A DNA stretch of 64,000 nt from an uncultured cyanobacterium (GTDB lineage Bacteria > Cyanobacteriota > Cyanobacteriia > Cyanobacteriales > Nostocaceae): NCBI GenBank assembly GCA_963706595.1, contig OY970166.1, positions 608,001-672,000 on the forward strand, read 5' to 3'. The notes under the pieces were generated by a model that did no database searches, was not told the DNA's origin, and saw nothing but the letters and a program-made list of their open reading frames with translations. The translations under genes were made by a program, and so were the position numbers. How positions within the stretch are numbered: position 1 is the first letter of the stretch; the number at the start of each line of letters is the position of its first letter. Positions 2,545 to 44,727 of this stretch are shown here, piece by piece.

Positions 2545-5416
2545 ATGAGGCAGCCACAAAAATCTTCCCCCGACGAACAACAGATCCTTGCCTTGTGCCG
2601 CGTCCTCCAAAGCTTGAGAGAAGAGGATGATGTTGACGTTCTGATTGCAACTACTATTTCCTATATTCAACAACAGTTTGACTACAGTCTGATTTGGATC
2701 GCTCTTTATGATCGCCACCAGCACACATTATCTGGCAAAGGCGGCGTTACACCTGACCAGGACACGAGTTTTTTACACAAACGGGTGGTTCTGCATCCAG
2801 GCGACATCTTAGAGCAAGTAGTTATTGAACAAGGACCATTAGGTGTAGTAGATTTACGTAACGAAACCCGTGCCAAAACATGGCAAGAAGTCGGCAAAAA
2901 GTTTAACATTCAGGGAACAATTTTTTGGCCAATTCGCCATAAAAAGCGGTTTTTAGGGTTATTATTACTCGGTTCAGAACGTTGGGGTTACTTAATTCCA
3001 GGAGACTCAAAAACACGATTGACCATCGTTTTAGGGCAACTAGCAGCAGTCCTCTATCAAAAAGAGATAGATTTGCAGCAACAGCAAACTAAACGCCCTG
3101 ATGAACCATTATTACAATTACTAGAAAATATCCGCGTCCTCAGTAATCTCGATCAAAGGCTGAAAGCAGTAGTAGAAGCAACTCATCAATTTGTCTCTCC
3201 CAGTCGGACAAATATTTATTGGTTTGACCGACAAGGGCGTTATTTTTGGTGTCGGATGAGCGATCATCTGGTGAATATCGGTCGTGATTATGGTGATCAA
3301 CAACCAGCACCAGGAATGACAGTGCAAGAGTTGAGCGAGTTATATTATGCTTTGTCAGTGAATGAAATTGTCTGGATTGGCGATGCACGTAGTTCTCTCA
3401 AAAGCCACTTTACGGCGAAATTGTTAAAACGCTTGCAGGTGCGATCGCTATTGGCAGCTCCTATTTTATGGCAAAAGGATCTACTAGGTTTTTTGGCGGT
3501 GGAAGATCATCAACCGCGCATTTGGGCGGAGGCAGATAAAAGTTTTGTCCAAGGCGCTGCGGGGCTAATCTCTTTAGTTGCTCCCATTGACAGCATGGAA
3601 AGCACCATCAAACAAATTCAAGATGATACTCAGACTGACTAGCCAAGTTGCCCAAGCTATCTATCACAAGCATGAATTTCACGAAACTCTCCGCGCCTGT
3701 GCAAAAAAAGTTCTGGCTCGACTAGCTGCTACCCGCCTTTTACTATTACAATACGACGCTGACCAAAATAATTATCAAATTATCTACCAAAGTCAACCTC
3801 ATAATCGCCGACCTTTGACATCTGCTTTCCATAATCTCGTAGAAGTAGATAGTTCTTTATTAAACTATGCTACTACCGCCGTCGAGGTAGAGAAATTAGA
3901 CGAAGATTTTCGGTTTTTTAACTGGCGAAATCAACTGGTAGAAAATGGTGTGCGATCGCTGTTAATTTGTAATTGTACTCAGGGTCATAGAGCAAAAGTG
4001 CTGCTGCTGATTGCTCACGAAACCCATCGCACTTGGTCAACCTTGGAAAAAGAACTGCTGTGGGTCGTTAGTCAACAAGTTGGCGTGATTGTCCAGCAAT
4101 GGCAACTCAAAACTGATAATGAGCAACAGCAGAAGGTGTTGCACAGCATTCAGCAATGCCTACGGATTCTGGAACAGAGTGAGCAAAGTCAAACCACTGA
4201 AACCGGGGCAAAGCATCTAGAACGGACTGTACTCGCACAAATAGCATCTGTTCTCGGCTGCCCCTTGGTATTCATGTTATCTTGGTCCTCTGGTCAAACT
4301 TATGCAGAAATTATCGAATCCACTAATAATGAATTTGAAATTGTTGCGAATGCAAAAATAACTGTTAAGTCTGAAGCTCTGATCCAGTGGGCGCTTTCCC
4401 AAAATGGTTACTTGAGTTTAACCGTAGATGATTTACCACTGGAAACCAGAAAATGGTTTAATTTTTCAGGAATTGGTCAAATTTTAATCATCGCATTACG
4501 TACTGCTGCTGCTTATCAACCCACAGGCGTGGTAGTGATAGCAGACAGTATGCAGCGTAAATGGTCCGAGCTAAGTCTTGACGCTACAGAAACACTAGTT
4601 ATTCAATTAGCTTGGTCCCTTCGTCAACAGCAAATAACCCAACTGTTAGAGTCTACTAACCAGGAATTACAACAACTCAATTGGTATAAACATAGTCGGC
4701 TGGAGGAAATTCAAAGAACAACAGCCCTGTTACTGGGACAAATACATGATTTGGGTATTCCCAGTAATGATCTGACGCGGACACGTTACCAGTTACTATT
4801 GCAGCAGTTAGACCAGACCACAGCCTCTATAACTGGATTAATCAAGCTGGAAAAATGGCAGTTACATAAGAGTGGGGAAACTATGCCCATCTCCAGTTTA
4901 CTTAAGCGATCGCTCGAACGAGTAGAAACTTTATTTCAGCAACACAAGTTATGGGTGGGTGTGCATGGTTTGGGACAATCGGGTGCAGAACCGGAAGCAG
5001 TAACTAGTTCTTTATTCCTACCAGGGATTCAGACCCCAACCTATCCCTCCTCAATGGCGATCACTGGTGATATTGTCAAAATTGAATTAGTTCTGCACGA
5101 ATTATTAGTATTTGCCTGTCAGCGTTCTCAACAAGGTGGCAGAATTGATATCTGGTGTCGCCGTTTAGATGAGCAATTACTGGAGTTATCAATTACAGAT
5201 AATGGCATCATTGAAGCCAAGCTACTCGAAGAGCTACATCACAATACACCCAAGGATGTGCTAGCAGTTTCTCTCCTCAAGCAACCTCCAGGCTTACACC
5301 TGCTGATTTGTCAAAACCTCATGCAGGAACTAGGAGGAGAATTGTATATCTATCAATTACCAGATAACCGGGTAGTCAGCCGCTTACTATTGCCATTAGC
5401 TGCCAAAAATTATTAG
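2545..5416 (+). CDS. Multi-GAF sensor with degenerate C-terminal histidine-kinase-like domain; split by a +1 frameshift near 3634
   Basis: ORFs 2545-3642 and 3578-5416 overlap. Removing one base from cagactgact gives ...QDDTQLTSQVAQ. Several GAF repeats (e.g. VRSLLAAPILWQKDLLGFL); C-terminus has ELVLHELL...SITDNG. Confidence 0.8.
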
Positions 5417-5502
5417 AAAATTTATCCCCCCTTTGTAGCAAACTCGTATAATAACTCTCCATCGCTCTCAAAATTCACACTCAAATCTGTACAGTATTGA
5501 TC

Positions 5503-5658
5503 ATGGGACGAGTTCGTTCTAAATCCGACCTACCTAGCAAAATCTGTCCGGTATGTCAACGCCCCTTTACTTGGCGAAAGAAATGGCAAGATTGCTGGGA
5601 TGAAGTGAAATACTGCTCAGAACGTTGCCGTCGTCGCCGTTCGGAAACCAAAAATTAA
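5503..5658 (+). CDS. DUF2256-family small protein (51 aa; below the ORF-track size cutoff)
   Basis: Translated by hand: MGRVRSKSDLPSKICPVCQRPFTWRKKWQDCWDEVKYCSERCRRRRSETKN*. The CxxCxRPFxWRKKW...YCSxRC pattern is characteristic. Confidence 0.9.
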   Translation: MGRVRSKSDLPSKICPVCQRPFTWRKKWQDCWDEVKYCSERCRRRRSETKN

Positions 5659-5762
5659 AGCGACTGGGGAGACTGGGAAAAAGGTTTCCTAATCACCAAT
5701 ACCCCATTTATAGTTAAACCAACTGAAACAACAGACGCAAATAGCGCAAGGGTTATAAATAG

Positions 5763-6716
5763 ATGAATTTACAGGTGCAACCTAAAGTAATTATTCATGG
5801 AGGAGCTGGTAGTTCTCTCCACGGTAAAGGAGGATTAGAGTCGGTACGCCGATCACTCTATACAGTAGTAGAGGCAGTCTATTCTCTTCTACTGTCAGGC
5901 GCAACTGCATCTGAGGCGGTGTTACTGGGTTGCCAAATGTTAGAAGATGACCCCCGCTTTAATGCTGGTACTGGTTCGGTACTACAATCTGATGGTCAAA
6001 TCCGCATGAGTGCTTCTTTGATGGATGGCACATCAGGGCGTTTTAGTGGTGTAATTAATATTTCGCGGGTGAAAAATCCGATTGAGTTGGTACACTTTTT
6101 GCAAAGTTCGCCAGATCGGGTACTTTCAGATTACGGTGCGGCTGAATTGGCACGGGAGTTACAAGTTCCCGTATTCAATGGTTTAACTGATTTAAGACTA
6201 AATGAATGGATGCAGGAACGCCGGGATAATTTTAAAAGCACTATGGCTGGTGTGGTTGCAGAACCGGAATTAGTAGAAAGCAGTAATGCTGGACGTGGCA
6301 CTATTGGTGTCGTCGTTTTAGATTCATCCGGTGGGTTGGCTGTTGGCACTTCTACTGGTGGTAAAGGCTTTGAGCGCATTGGTAGAGTCAGTGATTCTGC
6401 TATGCCCGCAGGTAATTATGCGACTAGTCATGCGGCAGTTAGCTGTACTGGTATTGGGGAAGATATCATTGATGAATGTTTAGCCGCTAAGATTGTGGTG
6501 CGGGTAACTGATGGTATGTCTCTTCAGGATGCTATGCAGCGCTCGTTTACGGAAGCGAGTAAAAATCAGCGCGATTTGGGTGCGATCGCCATCGAAGCCA
6601 CTGGCGCGATATCATGGGGTAAAACTAGCGAGGTGTTACTTGCTGCCTACCATGATGGAGAAAAAATTGGCGATACTTTGGAATGGAATAATGGAGAATT
6701 AGTTGGCTTTTGTTAA
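5763..6716 (+). CDS. Isoaspartyl peptidase / plant-type L-asparaginase (Ntn hydrolase)
   Basis: IIHGGAG, LEDDPRFNAGTGS, autocleavage G-TIGVV, STGG, GRVSDS, CTGIGE. Confidence 0.93.
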   Translation: MNLQVQPKVIIHGGAGSSLHGKGGLESVRRSLYTVVEAVYSLLLSGATASEAVLLGCQMLEDDPRFNAGTGSVLQSDGQIRMSASLMDGTSGRFSGVINISRVKNPIELVHFLQSSPDRVLSDYGAAELARELQVPVFNGLTDLRLNEWMQERRDNFKSTMAGVVAEPELVESSNAGRGTIGVVVLDSSGGLAVGTSTGGKGFERIGRVSDSAMPAGNYATSHAAVSCTGIGEDIIDECLAAKIVVRVTDGMSLQDAMQRSFTEASKNQRDLGAIAIEATGAISWGKTSEVLLAAYHDGEKIGDTLEWNNGELVGFC

Positions 6717-6800
6717 GTGTTTTTTTAACGCATTCGCCGTTAGGCGTTCCCGGAGGGTAGGTTCGCTAAGGTTAACGCAGAGGTTCGCGGAGGGAATTAC

Positions 6801-7223
6801 TCATTTTTGGATTAATTCCAGTGCTTGAGTGAGAATTTCTGGTTTGTTAACTATTGCGGCTAGTTCTTCGGTTTCATAACGTCCTTCTAGTGTTTCAAGC
6901 GCCGCTTTTTTGAGGGCTATTTGATATGCTTGTTGCAGAATATCTATTAATTCTGTCTGATTTAAGTAATTACCACCAGATTTGCGGCGCTTGTTTGTTT
7001 TGTTGATTTCCCGCACTGCATTTTCTATGGAAATCTCCCAAGAGCGAGTGGAACGGTTTTCAGCTTGTTGTTTAATTAAATGGATGAGTAGAATTACGCC
7101 ATAACTATCAATTTTATTGATTTTGTCACTGAGGCTCATTTCTTCTAACTCATCCACTAATAACAAAGCCTCTGGAATTTTACCTTGTTCTAGAAGTTCT
7201 CTGAGTTCTAGTAGTTCTTCCAT
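6801..7223 (-). CDS. DUF29 family protein
   Basis: ELEEMSLSDKINKI...LLIHLIK...RSTRSWEISI...AYQIALKKAALET pattern typical of cyanobacterial DUF29. Confidence 0.75.
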   Translation of the reverse strand: MEELLELRELLEQGKIPEALLLVDELEEMSLSDKINKIDSYGVILLIHLIKQQAENRSTRSWEISIENAVREINKTNKRRKSGGNYLNQTELIDILQQAYQIALKKAALETLEGRYETEELAAIVNKPEILTQALELIQK

Positions 7224-7265
7224 ATTGAATTCAGAATCTTGGCTTTACTTTTTCGTCGTTAATCA

Positions 7266-8630
7266 TTAAGTGGTTTGATTGTCAAGTTTTTTCTTTTGCC
7301 AACCTTTTTTAACGACTTGACGACTACGGGCAATTACTAAAGAATCATTAGGTACATCTTCTGTCACAGTTGAACCTGCGGCTACATAAACATCATCGCC
7401 TAAAGTGACTGGTGCGACTAACACACTATTAGAACCGGTTTTAGTGCGATCGCCTATGTGAGTGGGATGTTTTTTCACGCCGTCGTAGTTAGCAGTAATT
7501 GTACCTGCTCCAATATTTACTTTAGTACCTGTGGTAGTATCACCTAAGTATGATAAATGTGCGGCGTTAGTGCGATCGCCTAACTGAGTATTTTTCAATT
7601 CCACAAAGTTACCCACACGGCAATTAGCACCTACTACCGCATGACCACGTAAATGAGCATAAGGACCAATTTTGCTGCCTGTCTGCACGACGCTATCTGT
7701 AACTACAGAATACTGCACAGTCACATTTTCACCCAATTGGCTATTTTCAATTAAACTCCCAGGACCAATGCAACTCCCGGTTTGAATTGTTGTATTTCCC
7801 CGCAGGTGAGTTTGAGGTTCAATAATCACATCTGGCTGTAATTCTACGGTGTCATCAATGGTAATGCTCTGAGGGTCGATGAGAGTAACACCAGCCGCCA
7901 TCCATTTTTCCTTGACACGTTTTTGGATAATTTCGTAAGCCGTTGCTAGTTGCAGACGATCATTAATCCCCAGAATTTCTTGGTAATCTTCCACATCAAC
8001 AGCCATCACTTTGCCGACTTGAGTCACAGCATCGGTGAGGTAGTATTCTTTCTGGGCATTATTGGCCTGTAAGTGCGGCAAAACCTCAGCTAAATCCGGC
8101 CAATTAAAACAGTAAACCCCAGCGTTAATCCGACGATTTTGTTTTTGAGCCGCATTACAATCCTTCTCTTCCACAATTTGCTGCACAATATTTTCACTAT
8201 CACAAAAAACGCGCCCGTAGCCTTGAGGTTCACTTAGGTGTGAGGTGAGGATGGTGGCGGCGTTACCATTTTCTTCGTGAATTTGTAATAGCTGTTGCAG
8301 AGTTTGGGTGCGTAATAACGGGATATCGCCATTTAACACCAGTAAATCTCCCGTGTAACCCTCAAGGTGAGGTAGTAATTGCTGGATGGCATGACCTGTA
8401 CCCAGCTGTTGAGTCTGTTCGACAAACTCCAAGTTGGGGTACTGCATGGCTGCTTTAACTTGTTGCGCTTGATACCCCACAATCACCATCCGTCGTGAAG
8501 GTGAAAGCGGTTCTACACTGTCGAGAACTCTTTCAACGAGCGATCGCCTACCCAAAGAATGTAAAACTTTGGGTAGGTGTGATTTCATCCTGGTGCCGCG
8601 TCCCGCCGCTAAAATTGCTACAACTACCAT
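7266..8630 (-). CDS. glmU: Bifunctional UDP-GlcNAc pyrophosphorylase / glucosamine-1-phosphate acetyltransferase
   Basis: [48 protein letters not shown], hexapeptide repeats. Confidence 0.98.
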
Positions 8631-33414: not shown

Positions 33415-34905
33415 TTACCCAGATTGTCGCCAATTGACTGGAGCTTCCAAATAATCAGGTAGACGAGTTGTGCGATCGCCTAGTGCCATTCTAATCTGTT
33501 GTAACTGGACATTTTTTGCTCCTGTCAAAATAGCCCCTTCCAGTTTGACCTCACAGAGGTTAGCATCCGAAAGGTTAGCGCCCATGAGGTTAGTCCCCGA
33601 AAGGTTAGCTTGAAAAAGACTAGCCCTATTCAAGTCTGAACCCATCAAATTGGCTCTATCTAAGTCAGCTTCAGCAAAACTGGCTTCGCTGAGGTCAGCA
33701 AAAAAGATTTCTGTTTGTTGCAATTTAGCCGCATTCAGGTTGGCCCCATTCAGGTTAGCCCCATTCAGGTTAGCTCCATTCAGGTTAGCTCCAATTAGAC
33801 CAGCAAATTGCAGATTGGCTTTACCCAGCTTCGCCCATTGCAAGTTAGCTAGAAACAACTTTGCGCCAGAGAGGTTAGCAACTTTCAATGTCGCTTGTTG
33901 CAAATTGGCTTTATAAAGGTTAGCCCCAGAGAGATTAGCCGCACGCAGACTTGCTCCCAAAAGGTTTGCACCTCGTAAATTCGTCCCACAAAGGTTAGCG
34001 TTGTTCAGGTTAGCCCAACAGAGGTTGGCTCGATTCAGGTTCGCTTTCAGCAGGTTGGCTGCATAAAGAATAGCGCCAGTCAGTAAAGCACCATCAAGAT
34101 TGGCCTCACACAGGTAAGAACCTCGCAAGTTGGCTCCACAAAGATTAGCACCGCGCAAATCGGCTCTTTCTAGGTTCGCTTCAAGCAAATCGGCTCGCCG
34201 GATATCAGTATTACGTAAATCCAGTTTTTGATCTTCCTCTTCTAGCAGAGAATTACGCCGTCCAATTACAGTCAAGGCTGCTTGAATATCCCGACGCATT
34301 TTTGGTATTACTTCGCCAGTATTCTGTTCTTCCTTTTGTGTCCGATGCGCCCCGCTTTTGTATCTACCCAAGTAGATGGGTTTTAAGTTTTCTAACCTTT
34401 GTTGTTCTTCCTCTGTTTGAATGGGAGCATTTTCCCGCACAAAAGCTGTGAGGATTTCCATGATTGTCCAGTGTTCTTTGGGAAAATCTTGTGCAACTCT
34501 TTCTAAAACATAAATTGCACCTGTCCGGGTTTCAATTTTTTCATGCCCAAGCTGGGTAATTGCCCCCATAAAGCGTTCTACAATCAGCTTGTCTTGACTG
34601 CATTGGGAATTTTGAATGCTAATTTCGTTGCTTTTTTCAGCCGCCAAAGCATTTTTGTGCATAGCTTCTGCACGCTTTGCCGCATAGTAAGCATTAATCA
34701 AAACTGCCAATCCGAGAAAAACTATGGATGTGGTTGTTAATACCTGATTTCGAGATTGTATTCTTTGGTCAACTGTCAATTCCTCAAGGTAGGACGATGC
34801 AAAAACAATCAGAGTTAGTGAAAGCACAAATATAACTGTTATGGCTATCAACCAACGCCAGAATTTGTCTGTTTTATAAGCAGACATAGCAGTAATATTC
34901 CTCAC
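33415..34905 (-). CDS. Membrane-anchored pentapeptide-repeat protein
   Basis: Two N-terminal TM helices, helical domain (ERFMGAITQLG...RTGAIYVLERVA...DIQAALTVIGRR), long A(N/D)LxG repeats. Confidence 0.9.
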   Translation of the reverse strand: MRNITAMSAYKTDKFWRWLIAITVIFVLSLTLIVFASSYLEELTVDQRIQSRNQVLTTTSIVFLGLAVLINAYYAAKRAEAMHKNALAAEKSNEISIQNSQCSQDKLIVERFMGAITQLGHEKIETRTGAIYVLERVAQDFPKEHWTIMEILTAFVRENAPIQTEEEQQRLENLKPIYLGRYKSGAHRTQKEEQNTGEVIPKMRRDIQAALTVIGRRNSLLEEEDQKLDLRNTDIRRADLLEANLERADLRGANLCGANLRGSYLCEANLDGALLTGAILYAANLLKANLNRANLCWANLNNANLCGTNLRGANLLGASLRAANLSGANLYKANLQQATLKVANLSGAKLFLANLQWAKLGKANLQFAGLIGANLNGANLNGANLNGANLNAAKLQQTEIFFADLSEASFAEADLDRANLMGSDLNRASLFQANLSGTNLMGANLSDANLCEVKLEGAILTGAKNVQLQQIRMALGDRTTRLPDYLEAPVNWRQSG

Positions 34906-35197: not shown

Positions 35198-35947
35198 TCA
35201 TCCCAATTTGGCTTCTCGGAGATTTGCTCCTTTGAGTATGGCATCACCGAGAGTAGCTCCCTGTAGATTTGCTAGATATAAGTTAGCCTGTTCCAAATTA
35301 GCGCCCGCCAGATTAGCCCCAGAGAGGTTAGCAGCACTGAGAATTGCTCCAGAGAGGTTAGCGCCCGTCAGGTTAGCCCCAGAGAGGTTAGCAGCACTAA
35401 GAATTGCTCCAGAGAGGTTAGCCCCACAAAGGTTAGCTTGAGAAAGATTAACTTGATAGAGATTTGTCAGTTCTAGGTTGGCTTGATCAAGATTAGCCCC
35501 TCTCATATCCGTGTGGCTCAAATCCAGTAGTCCGTCTGACTCGTCTTGATCAGTATTTCTTCTCCCAATTACCGTCAGGGCTAATTGAATATCTCTAGGA
35601 ATTGTTGGTGATGGATAACTGTGAAACTGATTTCGATTCAGATCAGCAGCATAATTTTGCACAAAATTCGAGAGAATACCCATTATTTCCTGATGATATT
35701 GCGGATAATTTTGAGAAAATTCCTCTAAATCATAAATTACTGCTAGTCTGTTATCCAGATTTTCATGATTTAAATTTTTTGCAACTAGAAATAAAGGTGT
35801 TTGTCGCGTAGGAAATGTAATATCTACTACATTATTTTCGTTAACAACTATCCCCAGAATGATTTTTTGTAATGGTATCTGATTATTTATAAAATGCCGT
35901 TTTAATTGCTCTAATGCCTTGTAAGTATTAATAATTGCCATCAACAT
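35198..35947 (-). CDS. Pentapeptide-repeat protein (shorter paralog)
   Basis: DIQLALTVIGRR...LDLSHTDMRGANL followed by ANLSG repeats. Confidence 0.85.
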   Translation of the reverse strand: MLMAIINTYKALEQLKRHFINNQIPLQKIILGIVVNENNVVDITFPTRQTPLFLVAKNLNHENLDNRLAVIYDLEEFSQNYPQYHQEIMGILSNFVQNYAADLNRNQFHSYPSPTIPRDIQLALTVIGRRNTDQDESDGLLDLSHTDMRGANLDQANLELTNLYQVNLSQANLCGANLSGAILSAANLSGANLTGANLSGAILSAANLSGANLAGANLEQANLYLANLQGATLGDAILKGANLREAKLG

Positions 35948-37723: not shown

Positions 37724-37825
37724 AAAACTACTTTTTTGAGTTAAAAAATTCGAGTCGCCTTCAGGTAACAAAAGGAGAGAAAAAAAGAACAAGTGCAAAG
37801 TGCAAAAGAGGAAAAGTATAAAGGG

Positions 37826-40800
37826 CTACTGAAGAATCCTCCCAACAGCGCAAACAACACGAAAACCAATATAGTTGTGGTGGTTGTCGCGAGTATTGGG
37901 GCTGCGAAACGCGGAACGGCAGTAGTTAGGATAGTTGAACCAGGACCCGCCCCGCAGTATGGCTCTTACTTTTTTTTGGGAAAGATTATCATTATCATCA
38001 AACCAAGGACTGCCATCTATTGGCGCTCTCTTATAGTTATAGTGCCAGTCATCAAGACACCATTCCCATACATTTCCGTGCATATCGTATAACCCAAAAG
38101 CATTTGCTACCCCAAAACTGTTCACTTCTGTTGTTTCGCCTCGATATTCTCCTTCTATACCTGCGCCATAAGTGAGTTGAGCTAAATAGTTTGCAAGTTC
38201 TGATGTGATTGTTTCACCAAAGTGAAATGGGGTTGTAGTTCCGGCTCTACAGGCATACTCCCATTCCGCTTCACTGGGTAAACGATAGGTTTTGCCAGTA
38301 TGCTGGGATAGGCGATCGCAAAACTCCAGCGCATCGTACCAAGAGACTTTCTCTACAGGTCGATTCCCATCCTTAAACTTAGATGGGTCAGGTTCAAGTC
38401 TTCGGTTAACTTGCGGCAAAGATGCTACTGCTTGCCATTGCGCCTGTGTTATGGGGTATTTGCCCATGAAAAACGCTGGGACAGTTACTTGGTGTTGTGG
38501 ACTTTCATTACTTGAACGCTCCGGTTCCTCTTTTGGCGACCCCATGATAAAACTACCTTCAGGAATAGCAACCATTTCTAAGGTGACGTTGTTACCAAGA
38601 TTTTCTGTGTCGTATTCGGCGAATTTGGTGTCTCGCTTGATAATTTTGCCTTGACGGTTAACAGTGACAGTTTCAAACTCAAAGGACTTTAGCTCATCAC
38701 TTTCTTTTGCCAAAGATTGAACATCTTTAAATTCTTCTTTAGAATCAAAAGCAGCGATGGTATTTCTCACTAAATTTTCGCCCTCTCCATCCTGATTTCT
38801 TTGGGCTGCTTTTAAAGCTAAATCCAATCTCACCAAAGGATCTTGATTCGCTTCAATCCAACGCCAATACTGAATTAATGTAACTGTGATTCTAGCACTG
38901 CGACAGATTTGATCTGAACTCAATTCGTTGTCATAACCCCATTCAAGAAACAAAATTAAATTTGAGTTTTCTTGCAGAAGTAACTGCCGTCCCTTATTAT
39001 TATCTCCATTGCCAAAAAGCTTGAGAATTGTGTCACAGAAATTATCCTGATAAAAATCCAACACTTTAGGAGCTAGATAATCTATCCCTCTTGCTTTCTG
39101 TAATTTACTTTCTGCATAAGTACGGGCAGGTTCGGGCAAAGTTACTCTCCAATCAGATGCAGTAGAAGATTTTTCTGCCATAGAAAACTTGAGCAATTCC
39201 ATTAAAGCTTTCTGACCACTCCTACCTTCAATAGCCCTAGCCAAATCCCGACTTAAGCCACTAGGAAAGAAAGCCAACAAAGGAAATATATCTTGCCCTT
39301 CTACCGATAACATTTCAAAAGAACGCTCTAAAGTTATCTGCAAACTTCTTTCTCTTCTTTGTTCAGGAGAATAAGAACCCAGAACTTCCAGTGGTTCAAT
39401 TTCCAAGTCTTCACACAGCATCTTCAGAGTACTTTGAGTTTCTGCCATATAAGATGCTGCTAGTTTAATGGGTAAGGGATAGCCATCAAGAAACTTGACT
39501 AAAAGATTAAAATCTTCCTCCAAATCATCACTATCTCCCCATTGTGCTTGTGATGGAGCATACTTTCTAAATATTTCTCTGGTTTCTAACACTCCCATGC
39601 TGCAAACTTCTTCTTGATGACAATAAAGAATATCCCTTACTAAAGAATTACGAGAAGTTAGCAACAGTCTTAAATTAGGACACTGTTCTAAAAGCGAGTT
39701 TAAAAATTCAATTAGTTCATTATATTCTTTCTCAATCAATCTATCTAAATCATCGAAAATTAGAAATACTCGACTATTCCTTAACTCTTTCTCTAAAGCG
39801 AAACTCTTTAATTCCAGATTCTGTTGAACTTTGGTAATCAAGGTTCCTACAGAATCAGTATCACGCAAACTAATAAACCAAACTCCATCCTGATAGCGAT
39901 TGCGCTCATGTAACCACTGACCAATGGCATAAGCTAATGCAGTTTTACCTATTCCTCCCATACCATGTAGAGCAATACAACGTTTATCTGACTCTACCAG
40001 GACTTTAATTACCTGATGTATTTCTTGTCTGCGCCCGACAAAGTTAGGATTGTCACGGGTAATATTAGTATTTGACCACTGGGGATAGATAACCTGGTGA
40101 GAATTAGCTGGTTCTATAATCAGCGATTCATTATGGGAAACTTGGGGGAGTAATCGAAATTTAAAGGCTTCATCAAAATTAACCCCTGCCTCAAAAGTCT
40201 GAGAGTTAAACTGCTTTTTTAAGTTATCATCAAGTTTAACAGCTTTACGACTCGATAAAAATCCATCACCAACTGAATCTTCATTGAATAATGCTTGATA
40301 AAGTCTTCGAGAAAAACATCGGGCTGCAATATCTAAGATTGTATCTTCAGCGTTAACAGCAATTACATGAGACACTCCTACTTTGACAAAAGCTTGAGCT
40401 AATTTCTCTGAATGACAGGCATTCAATAATGCTAATTGACAAGGTGGTTGCTTCAGATTTGATAAAGCGATGGCAAGTTCTTCTTCACTAAAAGCACGAG
40501 TCATTCCTACTGAATCTTCTAGCACCAAAGCTGTGCTATCCTCATCTTTCATTCCATGACCAATAAAATGAATAATCAATGGTTTGGAACGATTGGAAAA
40601 CACATCTTGTAGCGTCTGAGAGGTGGCGACTTTCACCACTATTTCCACTGATATAGGATGAGATATATCTTCTAAAACTGAAGCGACCGCATCAATTTCT
40701 TTCTGGATTGATAAATTCTCGACTGGTAATGATTTTTCATCGAGTAGAGGTGCTGAAAATAATATCAGAATTTGATTATTGAAGGCATGATCTTTTTTAA

Positions 40801-40858
40801 TATCTTCTTCTACCCCTGGATTCAGGGGAACCCGTTGACCCACTTTTGAGACAACCAT
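37826..40858 (-). CDS. CHAT caspase-like protease - NB-ARC/STAND NTPase - FGE-sulfatase (SUMF1/CLec-fold) multidomain protein
   Basis: CHAT dyad HFIGH101G and LNAC148HS; FVGR; Walker A GMGGIGKT; Walker B FLIFDD; LLTSR; GYPLPI; C-terminal MVAIPEGSFIMGS...YRLPSEAEWEYACRAG...NAFGLYDMHGNVWEW...RGGSW...GFRVV. Confidence 0.9.
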   Translation of the reverse strand: MVVSKVGQRVPLNPGVEEDIKKDHAFNNQILILFSAPLLDEKSLPVENLSIQKEIDAVASVLEDISHPISVEIVVKVATSQTLQDVFSNRSKPLIIHFIGHGMKDEDSTALVLEDSVGMTRAFSEEELAIALSNLKQPPCQLALLNACHSEKLAQAFVKVGVSHVIAVNAEDTILDIAARCFSRRLYQALFNEDSVGDGFLSSRKAVKLDDNLKKQFNSQTFEAGVNFDEAFKFRLLPQVSHNESLIIEPANSHQVIYPQWSNTNITRDNPNFVGRRQEIHQVIKVLVESDKRCIALHGMGGIGKTALAYAIGQWLHERNRYQDGVWFISLRDTDSVGTLITKVQQNLELKSFALEKELRNSRVFLIFDDLDRLIEKEYNELIEFLNSLLEQCPNLRLLLTSRNSLVRDILYCHQEEVCSMGVLETREIFRKYAPSQAQWGDSDDLEEDFNLLVKFLDGYPLPIKLAASYMAETQSTLKMLCEDLEIEPLEVLGSYSPEQRRERSLQITLERSFEMLSVEGQDIFPLLAFFPSGLSRDLARAIEGRSGQKALMELLKFSMAEKSSTASDWRVTLPEPARTYAESKLQKARGIDYLAPKVLDFYQDNFCDTILKLFGNGDNNKGRQLLLQENSNLILFLEWGYDNELSSDQICRSARITVTLIQYWRWIEANQDPLVRLDLALKAAQRNQDGEGENLVRNTIAAFDSKEEFKDVQSLAKESDELKSFEFETVTVNRQGKIIKRDTKFAEYDTENLGNNVTLEMVAIPEGSFIMGSPKEEPERSSNESPQHQVTVPAFFMGKYPITQAQWQAVASLPQVNRRLEPDPSKFKDGNRPVEKVSWYDALEFCDRLSQHTGKTYRLPSEAEWEYACRAGTTTPFHFGETITSELANYLAQLTYGAGIEGEYRGETTEVNSFGVANAFGLYDMHGNVWEWCLDDWHYNYKRAPIDGSPWFDDNDNLSQKKVRAILRGGSWFNYPNYCRSAFRSPNTRDNHHNYIGFRVVCAVGRILQ

Positions 40859-40862
40859 TCCT

Positions 40863-41237
40863 CTATTTCCTCTTCAGTAGCTCTATTATTGAGTTCAACC
40901 ATTCCTCTAACTCCTCATCACTAGCATTATCGAGGTCTAGGGGAGGAAGTTTTGGGTGTGTTAACTTACCTTCTGGTTTTATTCCTTTTTCTCGAAGTTT
41001 TCGCCGCCAATTATTAATCGCTTTAGCGACTTTTATAGAGTACTCTATCAAATTGGCTGCTGCGGCTGCCCCTCCAATTACTGTAGCCACAAAAACTATG
41101 TCATCTGCACCAAAGACACGATTTAATGACTTCTGCACATTTATTGAACTCATCGTTAGTGATGTTTCCAATGAGTCGATTTCATCTGGTGGCAGTTGGG
41201 ATGAAATAATTATGCTACAGATAGGAATTTCGCTCAT
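40863..41237 (-). CDS. Small protein with central hydrophobic Gly/Ala segment, EACC1-like (inferred)
   Basis: 124 aa; GADDIVFVATVIGGAAAAANLIEYSIKVAKAINNWRRK; SD-like AGGGGT upstream; stop is 4 bp (AGGA) before the CHAT gene ATG. Confidence 0.7.
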   Translation of the reverse strand: MSEIPICSIIISSQLPPDEIDSLETSLTMSSINVQKSLNRVFGADDIVFVATVIGGAAAAANLIEYSIKVAKAINNWRRKLREKGIKPEGKLTHPKLPPLDLDNASDEELEEWLNSIIELLKRK

Positions 41238-41338
41238 TTGACTACACCCCTAATTTTGGTATAATTTGAAGCTACCGTAAAATAATATCATTTTTTCCTA
41301 GCTTTTAGGCAATTTTCAGTTAATTATAGGTCAAATAA

Positions 41339-42043
41339 ATGGGTTTTCAACTCGAAAGCATCATTCCTTGGGGACGTTCAATGCTGGAATATACCCAGAT
41401 GTTTGATTTAACTCCTGAAGAATTCAATTTAAATATACTCGATTGTGCTGGTGGTCCTGCTAGTTTCAATGCAGAAATGACACTTCAAGGCTACAAAGTT
41501 ATTTCTTGTGACCCAGTTTATCAATTTACAGCCGATGAAATTGCTCAACGCATTCAAGACACTTATGAAATAGTTATTCAAGGTGTGAAAGCCAATCGAG
41601 AATGCTATGTTTGGCGGAATGTTCAGTCACCAGAAATGATGGGTGAAATTAGGATGTCAGCAATGCGTCAATTTTTGGTAGATTTCCCTAACGGAATCAA
41701 TCAAGGGCGTTATCTAAAAGATGAATTACCTGTTTTACCTTTTGCAGCGAATCAATTTGATTTGGCTTTGTGTTCCCACCTATTATTTACCTATTCTGAG
41801 CAACTTTCAGCAGAGTTTCATTTAGCATCGATTATGGAAATGTGCCGAGTTGCCAAGGAAGTACGCATTTTTCCATTGTTACAATTATCTGGGGAATTAT
41901 CTCCCTGGCTGCAACCAGTGATAAATGAATTACAACAACGGGGATATGCGGTAAAAATCAAACAAGTTGCTTATGAGTTTCAGAAGAATGGGAACCAAAT
42001 GCTGTGTGTCAACTCAGATATAGGAATCCGGTTTGATTTATGA
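41339..42043 (+). CDS. SAM-dependent methyltransferase-like protein
   Basis: ILDCAGGPASFNAE, LPFAANQFDLALCSHLLFTY, RVAKEVRIFPL. Confidence 0.85.
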   Translation: MGFQLESIIPWGRSMLEYTQMFDLTPEEFNLNILDCAGGPASFNAEMTLQGYKVISCDPVYQFTADEIAQRIQDTYEIVIQGVKANRECYVWRNVQSPEMMGEIRMSAMRQFLVDFPNGINQGRYLKDELPVLPFAANQFDLALCSHLLFTYSEQLSAEFHLASIMEMCRVAKEVRIFPLLQLSGELSPWLQPVINELQQRGYAVKIKQVAYEFQKNGNQMLCVNSDIGIRFDL

Positions 42044-42495
42044 AAAAAATTAAGTATTGTAGTAGCGTGGCAAGCTTAAAGTAGTGCATTAGGAAAAAGC
42101 AGAAAACATTGATTTATCTCAATTTTCCCAAAAATCTATTGCAACATTTTAGCGTTGTCAGTCCAGTAGTGGCGTGGCAAGCTTAAAGTAGTGCATTAGG
42201 CAAAAGCAGAAAACATTGATTTATCTCAATTTTCTCAAAAATCTATTGCAACATTTTAGCCTTGCCACGCCAGTAGGGTGCGTTAGGATGAAATCCGTAA
42301 CGCACCATTCATTATTAAGGCTTTGGTGCGTTACGCTACCGCTAACACACCCTACTGGACTGACAAGCTTAAAATAGTGCATTAGGTAAAAGCAGAAAAC
42401 ATTGATTTATCTCAATTTTCTCAAAAATCTATTGCAACATTTTAGCCTTGTCCCGCCACTACTTGTTTGTTCAATAATCAAATAGTATTCCTATA
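42019..42495. mobile_element. Nested miniature elements: outer TATAGGAAT...ATTCCTATA element, central REP-like palindrome, three ~107-bp TIR-bounded copies
   Basis: Unit ...caagcttaaa.tagtgcattagg.aaaagcagaaaacattgatttatctcaattttc.caaaaatctattgcaacattttagc... at about 42060-42167, 42167-42274 and 42352-42461. Confidence 0.85.
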
Positions 42496-42885
42496 TTTGA
42501 AGCCCAGGATTTTCTACAGGCGATAATTGGGGCGTTGCTGATGTCAAAACCACTGTATTACTAGAGACGTTCAATCGAACGTCTCTACACCTAAATTTAT
42601 ACTTATACCAATTCTGTATGATAGCTTGCGTGGCGTAGCCATAGATGCGCTGAATGTAAGAGAAACGCACCGCAGAGACACAGAGGACACAGAGAGAAAA
42701 AAGGTTAAAAAATTCGGCGCAACCTCACAAAGAGATGGTATTAGTTTCAGCAACGCCGATAATTGGCTTGGCGCTAGACAAAGTTACTCAACATCAGAGT
42801 ATATTAAATTGGAAGCCCGCTCAGGCGTGGTTCGATTTCGTGTAGCCCCAGGCTTTAGCCTGCGGGAAATATATCAAATTTTCTC

Positions 42886-43533: not shown

Positions 43534-43701
43534 GTCCTTGATATGGATTTTAAATAATAACTCGCTCCATTATGGGTTTACGCTACAGAAAATAGGCTTT
43601 TGATTGATTTTGAATGGTCTGTTTATTTATGACGACTTGTACTAAATTTATCTGTGAGTCTAACCAAAATCCAAAATCCAAAATCTAAAATCTAAAATTG
43701 T

Positions 43702-44727
43702 ATGACTTTGTTACTAGCGGGAGACATCGGCGGCACGAAAACTATTTTGCGGTTAGTGGAAGCATCAGATTCACTAGAGTTACAGACTATTTATGAGGAA
43801 ACTTACCGCAGTGGGGATTTTGCGGATTTAGTCCCGTTGGTGCAGCAGTTTCTCACCAAGGCTAATACGCCCCCACCACAAAAGGCTTGTTTTGCGATCG
43901 CAGGGCCAGTTGTAGATAATACAGCCAAGCTGACCAATTTAACTTGGTTTCTCGATACTGACCGTTTAAAACAAGAATTAGGCATTGATTCTATGTGCCT
44001 AATTAATGACTTTGCGGCTGTGGGTTACGGCATTTTCGGGTTAAGTAAAAAAGATTTGCTGACTTTGCAAGTTGGTAAACACAAATTAGAAGCACCCATT
44101 GCCATTATTGGGGCGGGGACTGGCTTAGGACAAGGATTTTTGATTAAACAGGGCAATTACTATCAAGTCTTTCCCTCAGAGGGCGGACACGCTGATTTTG
44201 CTCCCCGCAGCGAGTTGGAATTTCAGCTATTGAAATATTTACTGGATAAACATGATATCCAGCGTGTTTCTGTAGAAAGGGTAGTCTCTGGACAGGGAGT
44301 TGTGGCAATTTACCAATTTTTGCGCGATCGCAAAATATCGGCCGAATCACCAGAAATCGCCCAAATTGTCAGAACCTGGGAACAAGAAGCCGGACAGCAG
44401 GAAAAAAGCGTTGATCCAGGTGCGGTAATTGGTATAGCTGCACTCCAAGGAAGCGATCGCCTGTCAGTACAAACCTTACAATTATTTGTAGACATTTACG
44501 GTGCAGAAGCCGGCAATCTTGCCCTAAAATTCTTACCTTACGGCGGCTTATATATTGCTGGTGGGATTGCGCCCAAAATCCAAACCCTGATGCAAAAAGG
44601 CAATTTTCTCTTAAACTTTAGCCAAAAAGGCAGGATGCGTTCCCTCCTTGAAGATATACCCGTGTATATTATTCTCAATCAACAAGTGGGGCTAATTGGT
44701 GCGGCTTTACGTGCAGCTAGGTTATAA
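43702..44727 (+). CDS. glk: Glucokinase
   Basis: LAGDIGGTKT, FAIAGPV, LINDFAA, GAGTGLG, SEGGHADF, GGLYIAGGI. Confidence 0.96.
   Translation: MTLLLAGDIGGTKTILRLVEASDSLELQTIYEETYRSGDFADLVPLVQQFLTKANTPPPQKACFAIAGPVVDNTAKLTNLTWFLDTDRLKQELGIDSMCLINDFAAVGYGIFGLSKKDLLTLQVGKHKLEAPIAIIGAGTGLGQGFLIKQGNYYQVFPSEGGHADFAPRSELEFQLLKYLLDKHDIQRVSVERVVSGQGVVAIYQFLRDRKISAESPEIAQIVRTWEQEAGQQEKSVDPGAVIGIAALQGSDRLSVQTLQLFVDIYGAEAGNLALKFLPYGGLYIAGGIAPKIQTLMQKGNFLLNFSQKGRMRSLLEDIPVYIILNQQVGLIGAALRAARL

Follow-up and report, generated by a model that had tools for sequence, protein, structure and literature searches.

Two groups of described bacterial systems come closest to the locus analyzed here. The EACC1-caspase pairs were predicted in 2020 as System 4 (Kaur, Burroughs, Iyer, Aravind; PMC7159879), with a small-residue (Gly) patch in the hydrophobic segment named as a hallmark of EACC1. 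The KrAvs12 caspase has been reported to cut EACC1 at Asp49 into pieces of 5.7 and 7.1 kDa, with toxicity confined to the C-terminal piece, which permeabilizes liposomes; EACC1-protease pairs also occur fused to domains linked to diversity-generating retroelements (DGRs) (Evans et al. 2025, bioRxiv 10.1101/2025.11.14.688446). The second group comprises DGR-diversified sensors that combine a NTPase of the STAND type (signal transduction ATPases with numerous domains) with a lectin fold, and carry N-terminal peptidase or TIR effectors, in multicellular bacteria (Dore et al. 2024, PMC10907252), along with cyanobacterial DGR targets and undiversified paralogues that contain orthocaspase or CHAT domains (Vallota-Eastman et al. 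2020, PMC7517822). Here we describe two adjacent genes on the minus strand that appear to bring these two groups together. They are located in a window, that is, the whole stretch of DNA analyzed, of 64,000 nucleotides (nt) from an uncultured cyanobacterium of the family Nostocaceae (GenBank assembly GCA_963706595.1, contig OY970166.1, positions 608,001 to 672,000); unless indicated otherwise, positions are those of the window.

The two genes encode proteins of 124 and 1010 amino acids (aa), and we consider it fairly probable that they make up a module of the EACC1-caspase kind, for cell suicide or conflict, that resembles the nucleotide-binding leucine-rich repeat (NLR) receptors, with the steps from ligand to membrane damage modeled on the domain architecture and the published EACC1 experiments. 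By its composition, the module is best interpreted as belonging to two published kinds of system, EACC1-caspase and DGR-diversified STAND-lectin, and cleavage and pore formation would be expected of it by analogy. One compact operon would then join two published ideas, a protease-released EACC1-type pore-former and a retroelement-diversified lectin sensor mounted on a bacterial NLR.

The large protein contains a CHAT protease, a NB-ARC-type NTPase and a FGE-sulfatase (C-type-lectin-fold) domain in that order, each scoring above its Pfam cut-off (24, 23.5 and 23.3 bits, respectively; Table 1), which bears out the effector-STAND-sensor architecture proposed in a preliminary reading of the sequence made without database searches (hereafter, the sequence-only reading). 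The catalytic dyad of the CHAT domain, H101 and C148, was located by script and is intact, as that reading had it, and invariant in 24 of the 24 aligned homologues; the domain weakly matches a solved CHAT chain (8tl0_A, E 8.5e-4), and the large protein scores 16.4 bits against the model of the EACC1-associated caspase, NF047832, compared with the cut-off of 140. The NTPase is complete as well, with all four of the motifs that had been quoted found by script, namely, Walker A GMGGIGKT (residues 299-306), Walker B FLIFDD (365-370), LLTSR (399-403) and GYPLPI (459-464). From this domain content, the large protein can be classified as a STAND NTPase of the NB-ARC type placed between effector and sensor domains. 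The named Avs families were not matched (PADLOC Avs4, 15.3 bits; NCBIfam Avs4, 16.2 bits against the cut-off of 1500). The arm between the NTPase and the lectin-fold domain had been described as a short helical remnant in the place of tetratricopeptide repeats (TPRs). Residues 481-770 yield no Pfam match even at E<=10 and, in the Atlas, only leads below 0.9, to STAND winged-helix and TPR clusters, so that there is indeed no recognizable TPR array, but the stretch, at about 270 residues, is not short; it possibly consists of a STAND winged helix followed by helical repeats. The lectin-fold domain matches the structural chains of PvdO (5hha_A, 7.6e-36) and of the DGR variable protein TvpA (2y3c_A, E 1.9e-20).

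The association of the two genes is far beyond chance. A scan of one genome per species identified 43 loci with relatives of the small protein, nearly all of them labeled cyanobacteria (Nostoc, Calothrix, Scytonema, Fischerella, Microcystis, Pleurocapsa, Symploca and Chroococcus are among the labels), and in 41 of these, the small gene is followed directly by a gene for a homologue of the large protein (32 full length, 4 cut by contig ends and 5 broken). The two loci without a large-gene homologue after the small gene are L047 and L051, and a more distant pair, L007, keeps the arrangement at 43% identity. A broader profile (A3), run against 401 genomes of the phylum, matched 13 genomes, including the one that contains the window, whereas both same-genus genomes were negative. 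Ten weak matches of this profile (L073-L082, in ten cyanobacterial genomes) represent a separate family of small proteins of 108-142 aa, and all ten are located 5' of open reading frames (ORFs) whose conserved CHAT-type N-terminus is the same: eight are directly adjacent to the next ORF, L082 lies 440 nt upstream, and the gene in L078 is split. All six partners of these proteins that were scanned with Pfam carry CHAT and STAND NTPase domains. The sequence-only reading had named a lack of co-occurrence with caspase or CHAT genes as an observation that would speak against it; the co-occurrence holds for close and distant relatives alike.

The separate family has a consensus of the type MAEIKF.IEGE...ATIVG..GG.IAIAEQIRKWYQ...LLLENATIEEI, and only a single member gives so much as a faint match to PF19953. 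At L008 (G160:C99), L047 and L051, the small gene is present as an orphan or partial copy that no CHAT gene follows; the L008 copy has lost the GADD motif.

In 35 of the 38 orthologous loci in which both ORFs can be called, the small and large genes overlap by 19 nt, which suggests that they are probably translationally coupled. In the window, a 44-nt tandem duplication has converted the usual overlap into a 4-nt gap and extended the small protein by seven residues, the homologues being 117 aa long. Despite the duplication, the large gene has kept its AGGA-preceded start codon: the TAG of the small gene (40865-40863) is followed by AGGA (40862-40859) and the ATG of the large gene (40858-40856), so that both ORFs and the spacer are as first described. 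The two genes are presumably co-transcribed. A consensus scan detected no promoter-like and no terminator-like site in the 4-nt gap; the same scan yielded 16 promoter-like sites in the region compared with 10.1 expected.

The small protein belongs to a family of 75 clusters, mostly 117 aa in length and 53-96% identical, in a word-indexed search, and of 105 representatives at 50% identity in a full search with a hidden Markov model (HMM). None of Pfam (E<=1, gasdermins included), NCBIfam (E<=1) and PADLOC contains a model that matches the small protein of the window. The hydrophobic segment noticed in the sequence-only reading corresponds to residues 46-64, the best 19-residue Kyte-Doolittle window (mean 1.84); a GGAAAAA patch lies at its center, and conservation is at least 90% for G56, A59 and A61. 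The AlphaFold2 model (predicted local distance difference test score, pLDDT, 79) consists of strand 3-12, helix 17-29, strand 33-37, a low-confidence loop 39-43 (the residues with pLDDT <50), strand 46-54, helix 59-83, strands 90-94 and 97-101, and helix 107-123. The predicted build is, then, a beta-alpha-beta half (residues 1-37), a loop (38-45), the hydrophobic segment (46-64), an amphipathic helix that extends to residue 83, a beta-hairpin and a C-terminal helix. The candidate cut site, NR-VFGADD, coincides with the low-confidence loop that joins the predicted halves of the fold, as would suit the cleavage that had been proposed there. The 25 close homologues share R40 and D45 without exception and conserve D46 to at least 90%, all three residues lying in or beside this loop; in the wider family, a basic residue is the consensus at the R40 position, and GADD is not kept. 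A cut at 40 or 46 would yield pieces computed at about 4.4-5.1 kDa and at least 8.6 kDa. A Foldseek search of the model against the PDB gave no match at E<=0.001, returning only generic ferredoxin-like folds with TM-scores <=0.43, and complex prediction with the CHAT region (residues 1-270) and the small protein reached scores of 0.26 and 0.00, the mark being 0.32. The small-protein domain also occurs in fusions (P0098, P0111 and P0156): in a 199-aa protein, the N-terminal half is joined to a CHAT fragment, and in two others (535 and 495 aa), the domain is C-terminal, behind membrane-rich or M48-peptidase-like regions.

Whether this family belongs with EACC1 was assessed mostly against Pfam PF19953 (gathering cut-off 23.6 bits). 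Collinear matches of 14-21.6 bits, all below the cut-off, were obtained for 24 of 88 family representatives, mostly aligning protein residues ~55-110 with model positions ~46-101, and PF19953 finds nothing above the cut-off in the genome that contains the window. Across 401 cyanobacterial genomes, the model produced a single match, also below the cut-off (L069, G427:C3:84475-87762), in a genome of the same family as the window. This is a classical EACC1-caspase pair: the small protein of 127 aa, at 22.5-23 bits just under the cut-off, sits before a caspase that passes NF047832 (167.8 bits, cut-off 140), and because of this neighbor, it was used as the reference EACC1. Its AlphaFold2 model (pLDDT 75.5) consists of strand 6-13, helix 20-34, strand 40-45, a low-confidence loop 47-60, strand 61-71, helix 72-86, strands 91-96 and 102-107, and helix 110-125. 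The two models, compared by the order of their elements rather than superposed, share the succession beta-alpha-beta, low-confidence loop, beta-alpha-beta-beta-alpha. Alignment with cyanobacterial EACC1 using hhalign was collinear over the full length at E 0.0087 and 0.0046, and over the C-terminal hairpin and helix at E 4.5e-4, with probabilities of 5-33%; in the Atlas, a cluster with 22% EACC1 members came up at rank 15 with a score of 0.88, which is a lead only. The context is that of EACC1, with the small gene directly 5' of a gene that starts with a caspase-superfamily peptidase, and so is the segment, single and hydrophobic, with a small-residue patch and alpha and beta elements on its flanks. 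Thus, of the EACC1 likeness claimed at the outset, the context, the patch and the element order stand, whereas model matches are lacking and profile-profile support is weak. In build and context, the small protein resembles EACC1, of which it is probably a distant relative, with formal membership in the family not established.

In the mechanism that we favor, the large protein would act as sensor, switch and executioner. Binding of a ligand by the C-terminal lectin-fold domain would cause the NB-ARC NTPase to oligomerize, bringing together and thereby activating the N-terminal CHAT domains. The protease would then cleave the exposed loop that connects the two halves of the small protein, after R40 or after D45 or D46, removing an N-terminal lid of about 4.5-5 kDa and freeing the C-terminal part of about 8.5 kDa, which, with its hydrophobic Gly/Ala-rich segment and amphipathic helix, would assemble in the membrane and kill or arrest the cell.

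Compared with EACC1-caspase systems (PMC7159879; EACC1-KrAvs12), the locus has the same gene order, a small 5' gene directly before a gene for a caspase-superfamily protease, STAND NTPase and variable C-terminal domain. The small protein resembles EACC1 in having one hydrophobic segment with a Gly/Ala patch and alpha and beta flanks, in the predicted order of elements and in the position of the disordered loop, and the predicted fragments of about 5 and 8.5 kDa are close to the published 5.7 and 7.1 kDa. Unlike EACC1, it is recognized neither by PF19953 nor by any NCBIfam model, the protease scores as CHAT (PF12770) rather than as NF047832, and a lectin fold of the DGR type takes the place of the Avs12 sensor. 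With the DGR-diversified STAND-lectin proteins, proposed to be 'antigen sensors', the large protein shares the N-terminal peptidase, the central STAND NTPase, the C-terminal FGE-type lectin fold and a variable region at the very end that varies only in the first two positions of its codons, and one orthologue, L031, keeps the accessory protein bAvd, the reverse transcriptase (RT) and the template repeat (TR). The locus in the window differs from those systems in that the retroelement is missing and the variable region is fixed, and in the pairing of the target with a small pro-toxin gene, which is not described in the available texts (PMC10907252, PMC7517822).

The tripartite effector-NTPase-sensor logic and the NB-ARC/NACHT match are common to the large protein and to Avs and bacterial NACHT proteins, from which it is set apart by a lectin-fold sensor instead of TPRs, by an effector that would act via a separate substrate protein, and by Avs4 matches that are only weak and generic. 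Work by Johnson and coworkers from 2022 is said to describe a bacterial gasdermin with a neighboring caspase-like or CHAT protease. As in that case, a protease would free a membrane pore-former from an autoinhibited precursor whose gene lies alongside, but the small protein has no gasdermin match, is far smaller, and its inhibitory part would be N-terminal.

The sensor had been called unusual in the sequence-only reading, which missed the feature that places it in a published class, a DGR variable region (PMC10907252, PMC7517822). Within the large protein, variability peaks in the last 40 residues (identity of 0.56-0.60 compared with ~0.85-0.9 elsewhere, among 33 orthologues), and their alignment displays a fixed scaffold, RGGSW..P..CRSA.R....GFRVV, around hypervariable positions. 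In L031, from a Microcystis metagenome-assembled genome, the large gene is followed by bAvd (117 aa), a RT (352 aa) and a 128-nt repeat at 7414-7541 of that locus. The template has A in 27 of the 39 mismatched columns of the padded repeat alignment; in the printed core, all visible mismatches are at template adenines, and the other mismatches are in the flanks and at the 3' end. When the L031 template is mapped on the 33 orthologues, the mean column entropy is 3.01 bits for the 13 AAY codons (AA at positions 1-2), 2.39 bits for the 5 codons with one A, and 0.85 bits for the 24 codons with A at neither of these positions. At nearly all variable columns, 0.91-1.00 of the sequences keep C or T as the third base, and the codons of the window gene at the variable sites are all NNY. 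Judging from this codon pattern, the tip with which the sensor would bind its ligand is, in this gene family, a DGR-written variable region.

No Avd and no RT are encoded within the 64-kb window, and no copy with the template pattern is present in the 5.57-Mb contig (any plasmids are not in the assembly). Since the locus lacks DGR parts and the genome a matching template, the specificity of the sensor appears to be frozen, unless a template resides on an unassembled replicon. Elsewhere in the family, Avd fragments only are found after the large gene in seven further loci (L009, L017, L019, L022, L026, L027 and L042), a RT was identified at 1 of the 43 loci, and a template-like repeat at 1 of the 32 tested.

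Several candidate templates in the genome that contains the window (G000) were rejected. The repeat at G000:C1:4625389-4625523 has mismatches at all four bases and is the variable end of a TIR/SEFIR-FGE protein; the copies at 4509211 and 4510346 are the ends of other FGE-domain genes. The only DGR-type RT of this genome, 304 aa compared with 352 aa in L031, is located beside bAvd and the TIR/SEFIR-FGE target, in a degenerate DGR (L065, G000:C1:4619000-4631000, ~4927-7963 in locus coordinates) with a target of 533 aa (SEFIR/TIR and FGE-sulfatase) and a bAvd of 118 aa; no template repeat was found next to this RT. A further locus (L066, G000:C1:4505000-4514000) consists of a gene for an AAA ATPase, MoxR-like by appearance, then a 1081-aa protein with an OAA-lectin SBD and a FGE-sulfatase domain, and then a 281-aa FGE-sulfatase protein. 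Their 3' ends share 77-79% DNA identity with the end of the window gene and vary at the same codons; the cluster resembles the ternary-type sensor clusters of the literature, with no vWA domain detected at E<=0.001. At L058 (G000:C1:1870906-1871113), a frameshifted variable-region-like gene end is 81% identical to the end of the TIR/SEFIR-FGE target and shares its 3' flank.

The module is an accessory block of 3.6 kb. The small protein is encoded in 5 of 200 other genomes of the order and in none of 10 sampled from the family of the window, and in 2 of 2 same-genus genomes, the site is empty, which indicates that the block is accessory: the flanking genes, encoding a pyridine-nucleotide-disulphide oxidoreductase and a 234-aa protein, are 113-114 nt apart there compared with 3.6 kb in the window. 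The intergenic DNA is unrelated in this comparison, and no target duplication is visible.

Several observations weigh against the reading of the locus as a module for cell suicide or conflict of the EACC1-caspase kind. The small protein is missed by the Pfam and NCBIfam models of EACC1 at E<=1 and its family by a HMM of 22 cyanobacterial EACC1-type proteins (best match E 0.013, Z=1000), and the hhalign probabilities are low. The cut site is uncertain because the wider family has other loop sequences in place of GADD. The hydrophobic segment is placed by AlphaFold2 inside a soluble ferredoxin-like fold, and its mean hydrophobicity is moderate for a membrane helix. The neighbors are ordinary metabolic genes rather than a defense island, and PADLOC offers nothing specific for either protein, apart from weak generic NTPase matches to the large one. 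Finally, the genome holds no DGR template, Avd or RT for the window gene, so that the module could be a relic; in other genomes, 5 of the 41 orthologous large genes are broken.

The last of these possibilities, a decaying relic in which the retroelement is lost and the function gone with both frames still open, finds further points in its favor in the Avd fragments that are all that remains at seven other orthologous loci, in the shorter RT of this genome, for which no template repeat was found, and in the gene junction disturbed by the duplication, to which the broken large genes of other genomes can be added. Nevertheless, both ORFs are intact over 3.4 kb with all catalytic and NTPase motifs present, and the duplication kept the start codon and the AGGA before it. 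Most orthologues without a nearby RT are intact as well; that 32 of the 41 large genes are full length and only 1 of these 32 is accompanied by a RT implies selection without a DGR in cis, and we regard decay as highly unlikely. The small protein could also be a membrane-associated sensor, anchor or regulator of the protease rather than its substrate, with the lectin-fold domain being the deployed effector or binding arm freed by auto-proteolysis. Such a role was proposed for EACC1 by Kaur et al. (PMC7159879); the tight pairing and the 19-nt overlap fit any stoichiometric partner, and a hydrophobic segment with a small-residue patch could be an anchor. Yet later experiments on EACC1-caspase show cleavage of the substrate and pore formation by the C-terminal fragment (bioRxiv 10.1101/2025.11.14.688446), the invariant residues are in a disordered loop between folded halves, as expected of a cleavage site, and the DGR-diversified lectin fold is a binding module that is no known killing effector (PMC10907252), all of which makes this arrangement of roles decidedly unlikely in our assessment.

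Two other readings retain the protease-gated mechanism and change its origin or its purpose. The same mechanism might serve a non-antiviral role, in kin or self/non-self discrimination, developmental cell death in filaments or the tuning of signaling pathways. The position outside any defense island and the lack of a PADLOC entry are compatible with this view, regulatory roles have been argued for cyanobacterial DGR targets with caspase or CHAT domains (PMC7517822), and kin recognition has been raised as an alternative (PMC10907252). The patchy distribution and the presence-absence difference between congeners are, however, typical of conflict systems, and the EACC1 pair that has been studied by experiment is one that responds to a phage protein (bioRxiv 10.1101/2025.11.14.688446); a non-antiviral function seems unlikely to us. 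It appears similarly improbable that the small proteins are an independent, convergent family of protease-gated membrane effectors that travels with CHAT-STAND genes in cyanobacteria, with the frozen, retroelement-written sensor retaining here a selected specificity, for a recurrent phage or for non-kin filaments; if this were true, the natural ligand of a DGR-diversified bacterial NLR would be directly findable.

If, as we favor, the locus is an EACC1-caspase-type module with a DGR-written sensor, it leaves the picture of how such systems work unchanged. What it adds to the available texts of the cited papers is modest: a Pfam-invisible family of small proteins obligately coupled to a DGR target, a template imprint seen across the family, and the apparent loss of the retroelement with the genes kept intact. 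The exact architecture may already be drawn in the figures of the EACC1 papers (PMC7159879, bioRxiv 10.1101/2025.11.14.688446). The family of ~117-aa proteins is well conserved in cyanobacteria and invisible to the Pfam and NCBIfam EACC1 models and to PADLOC, and is therefore missed by genome annotation and by defense-system finders. The frozen variable region in the window and the live-looking DGR in L031 make a natural pair for asking what such sensors bind.

Table 1. Features of the two-gene module and its surroundings (window positions; residue numbers refer to the large protein)
Feature	Position	Strand	Basis
Small gene, 124 aa, EACC1-like putative pro-toxin	40863..41237	minus	ORF
Large gene, 1010 aa	37826..40858	minus	ORF
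CHAT (PF12770, caspase-superfamily) protease, residues 43-192, 40.2 bits	40283..40732	minus	Pfam
NB-ARC-type STAND NTPase, residues 278-491, 57.2 bits	39386..40027	minus	Pfam
Linker/arm, residues 492-760, no family match	38579..39385	minus	Pfam, Atlas
FGE-sulfatase / C-type-lectin-fold domain, residues 761-1002, 192.6 bits; putative ligand sensor	37853..38578	minus	Pfam
DGR-type variable region, about residues 970-1000, NNY codons at variable sites	37859..37951	minus	Family-wide pattern
Gene junction with 44-nt tandem duplication; 12-mer GAGGAATGGTTG at 40907-40896 and 40863-40852	40852..40907	minus	
Promoter-like site TTGAAA-16 nt-TATAAT, 11/12, ~86 nt 5' of the small-gene ATG	41323..41350	minus	Consensus match only
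Terminator-like hairpin across the large-gene stop codon	37825..37849	minus	Consensus match only
Whole 3.6-kb module as insertion/deletion difference	37724..41336	no strand	Comparison with two same-genus genomes

Outside the module, stretches of ~45-190 nt from 42019-42500 and 43589-43711 recur at 80-100% identity in dozens of places of a same-genus genome and may represent a miniature repeat element in intergenic DNA. Two genes on the minus strand near the module, read by eye, encode pentapeptide-repeat proteins of 496 aa (33415-34905) and 249 aa (35198-35947).

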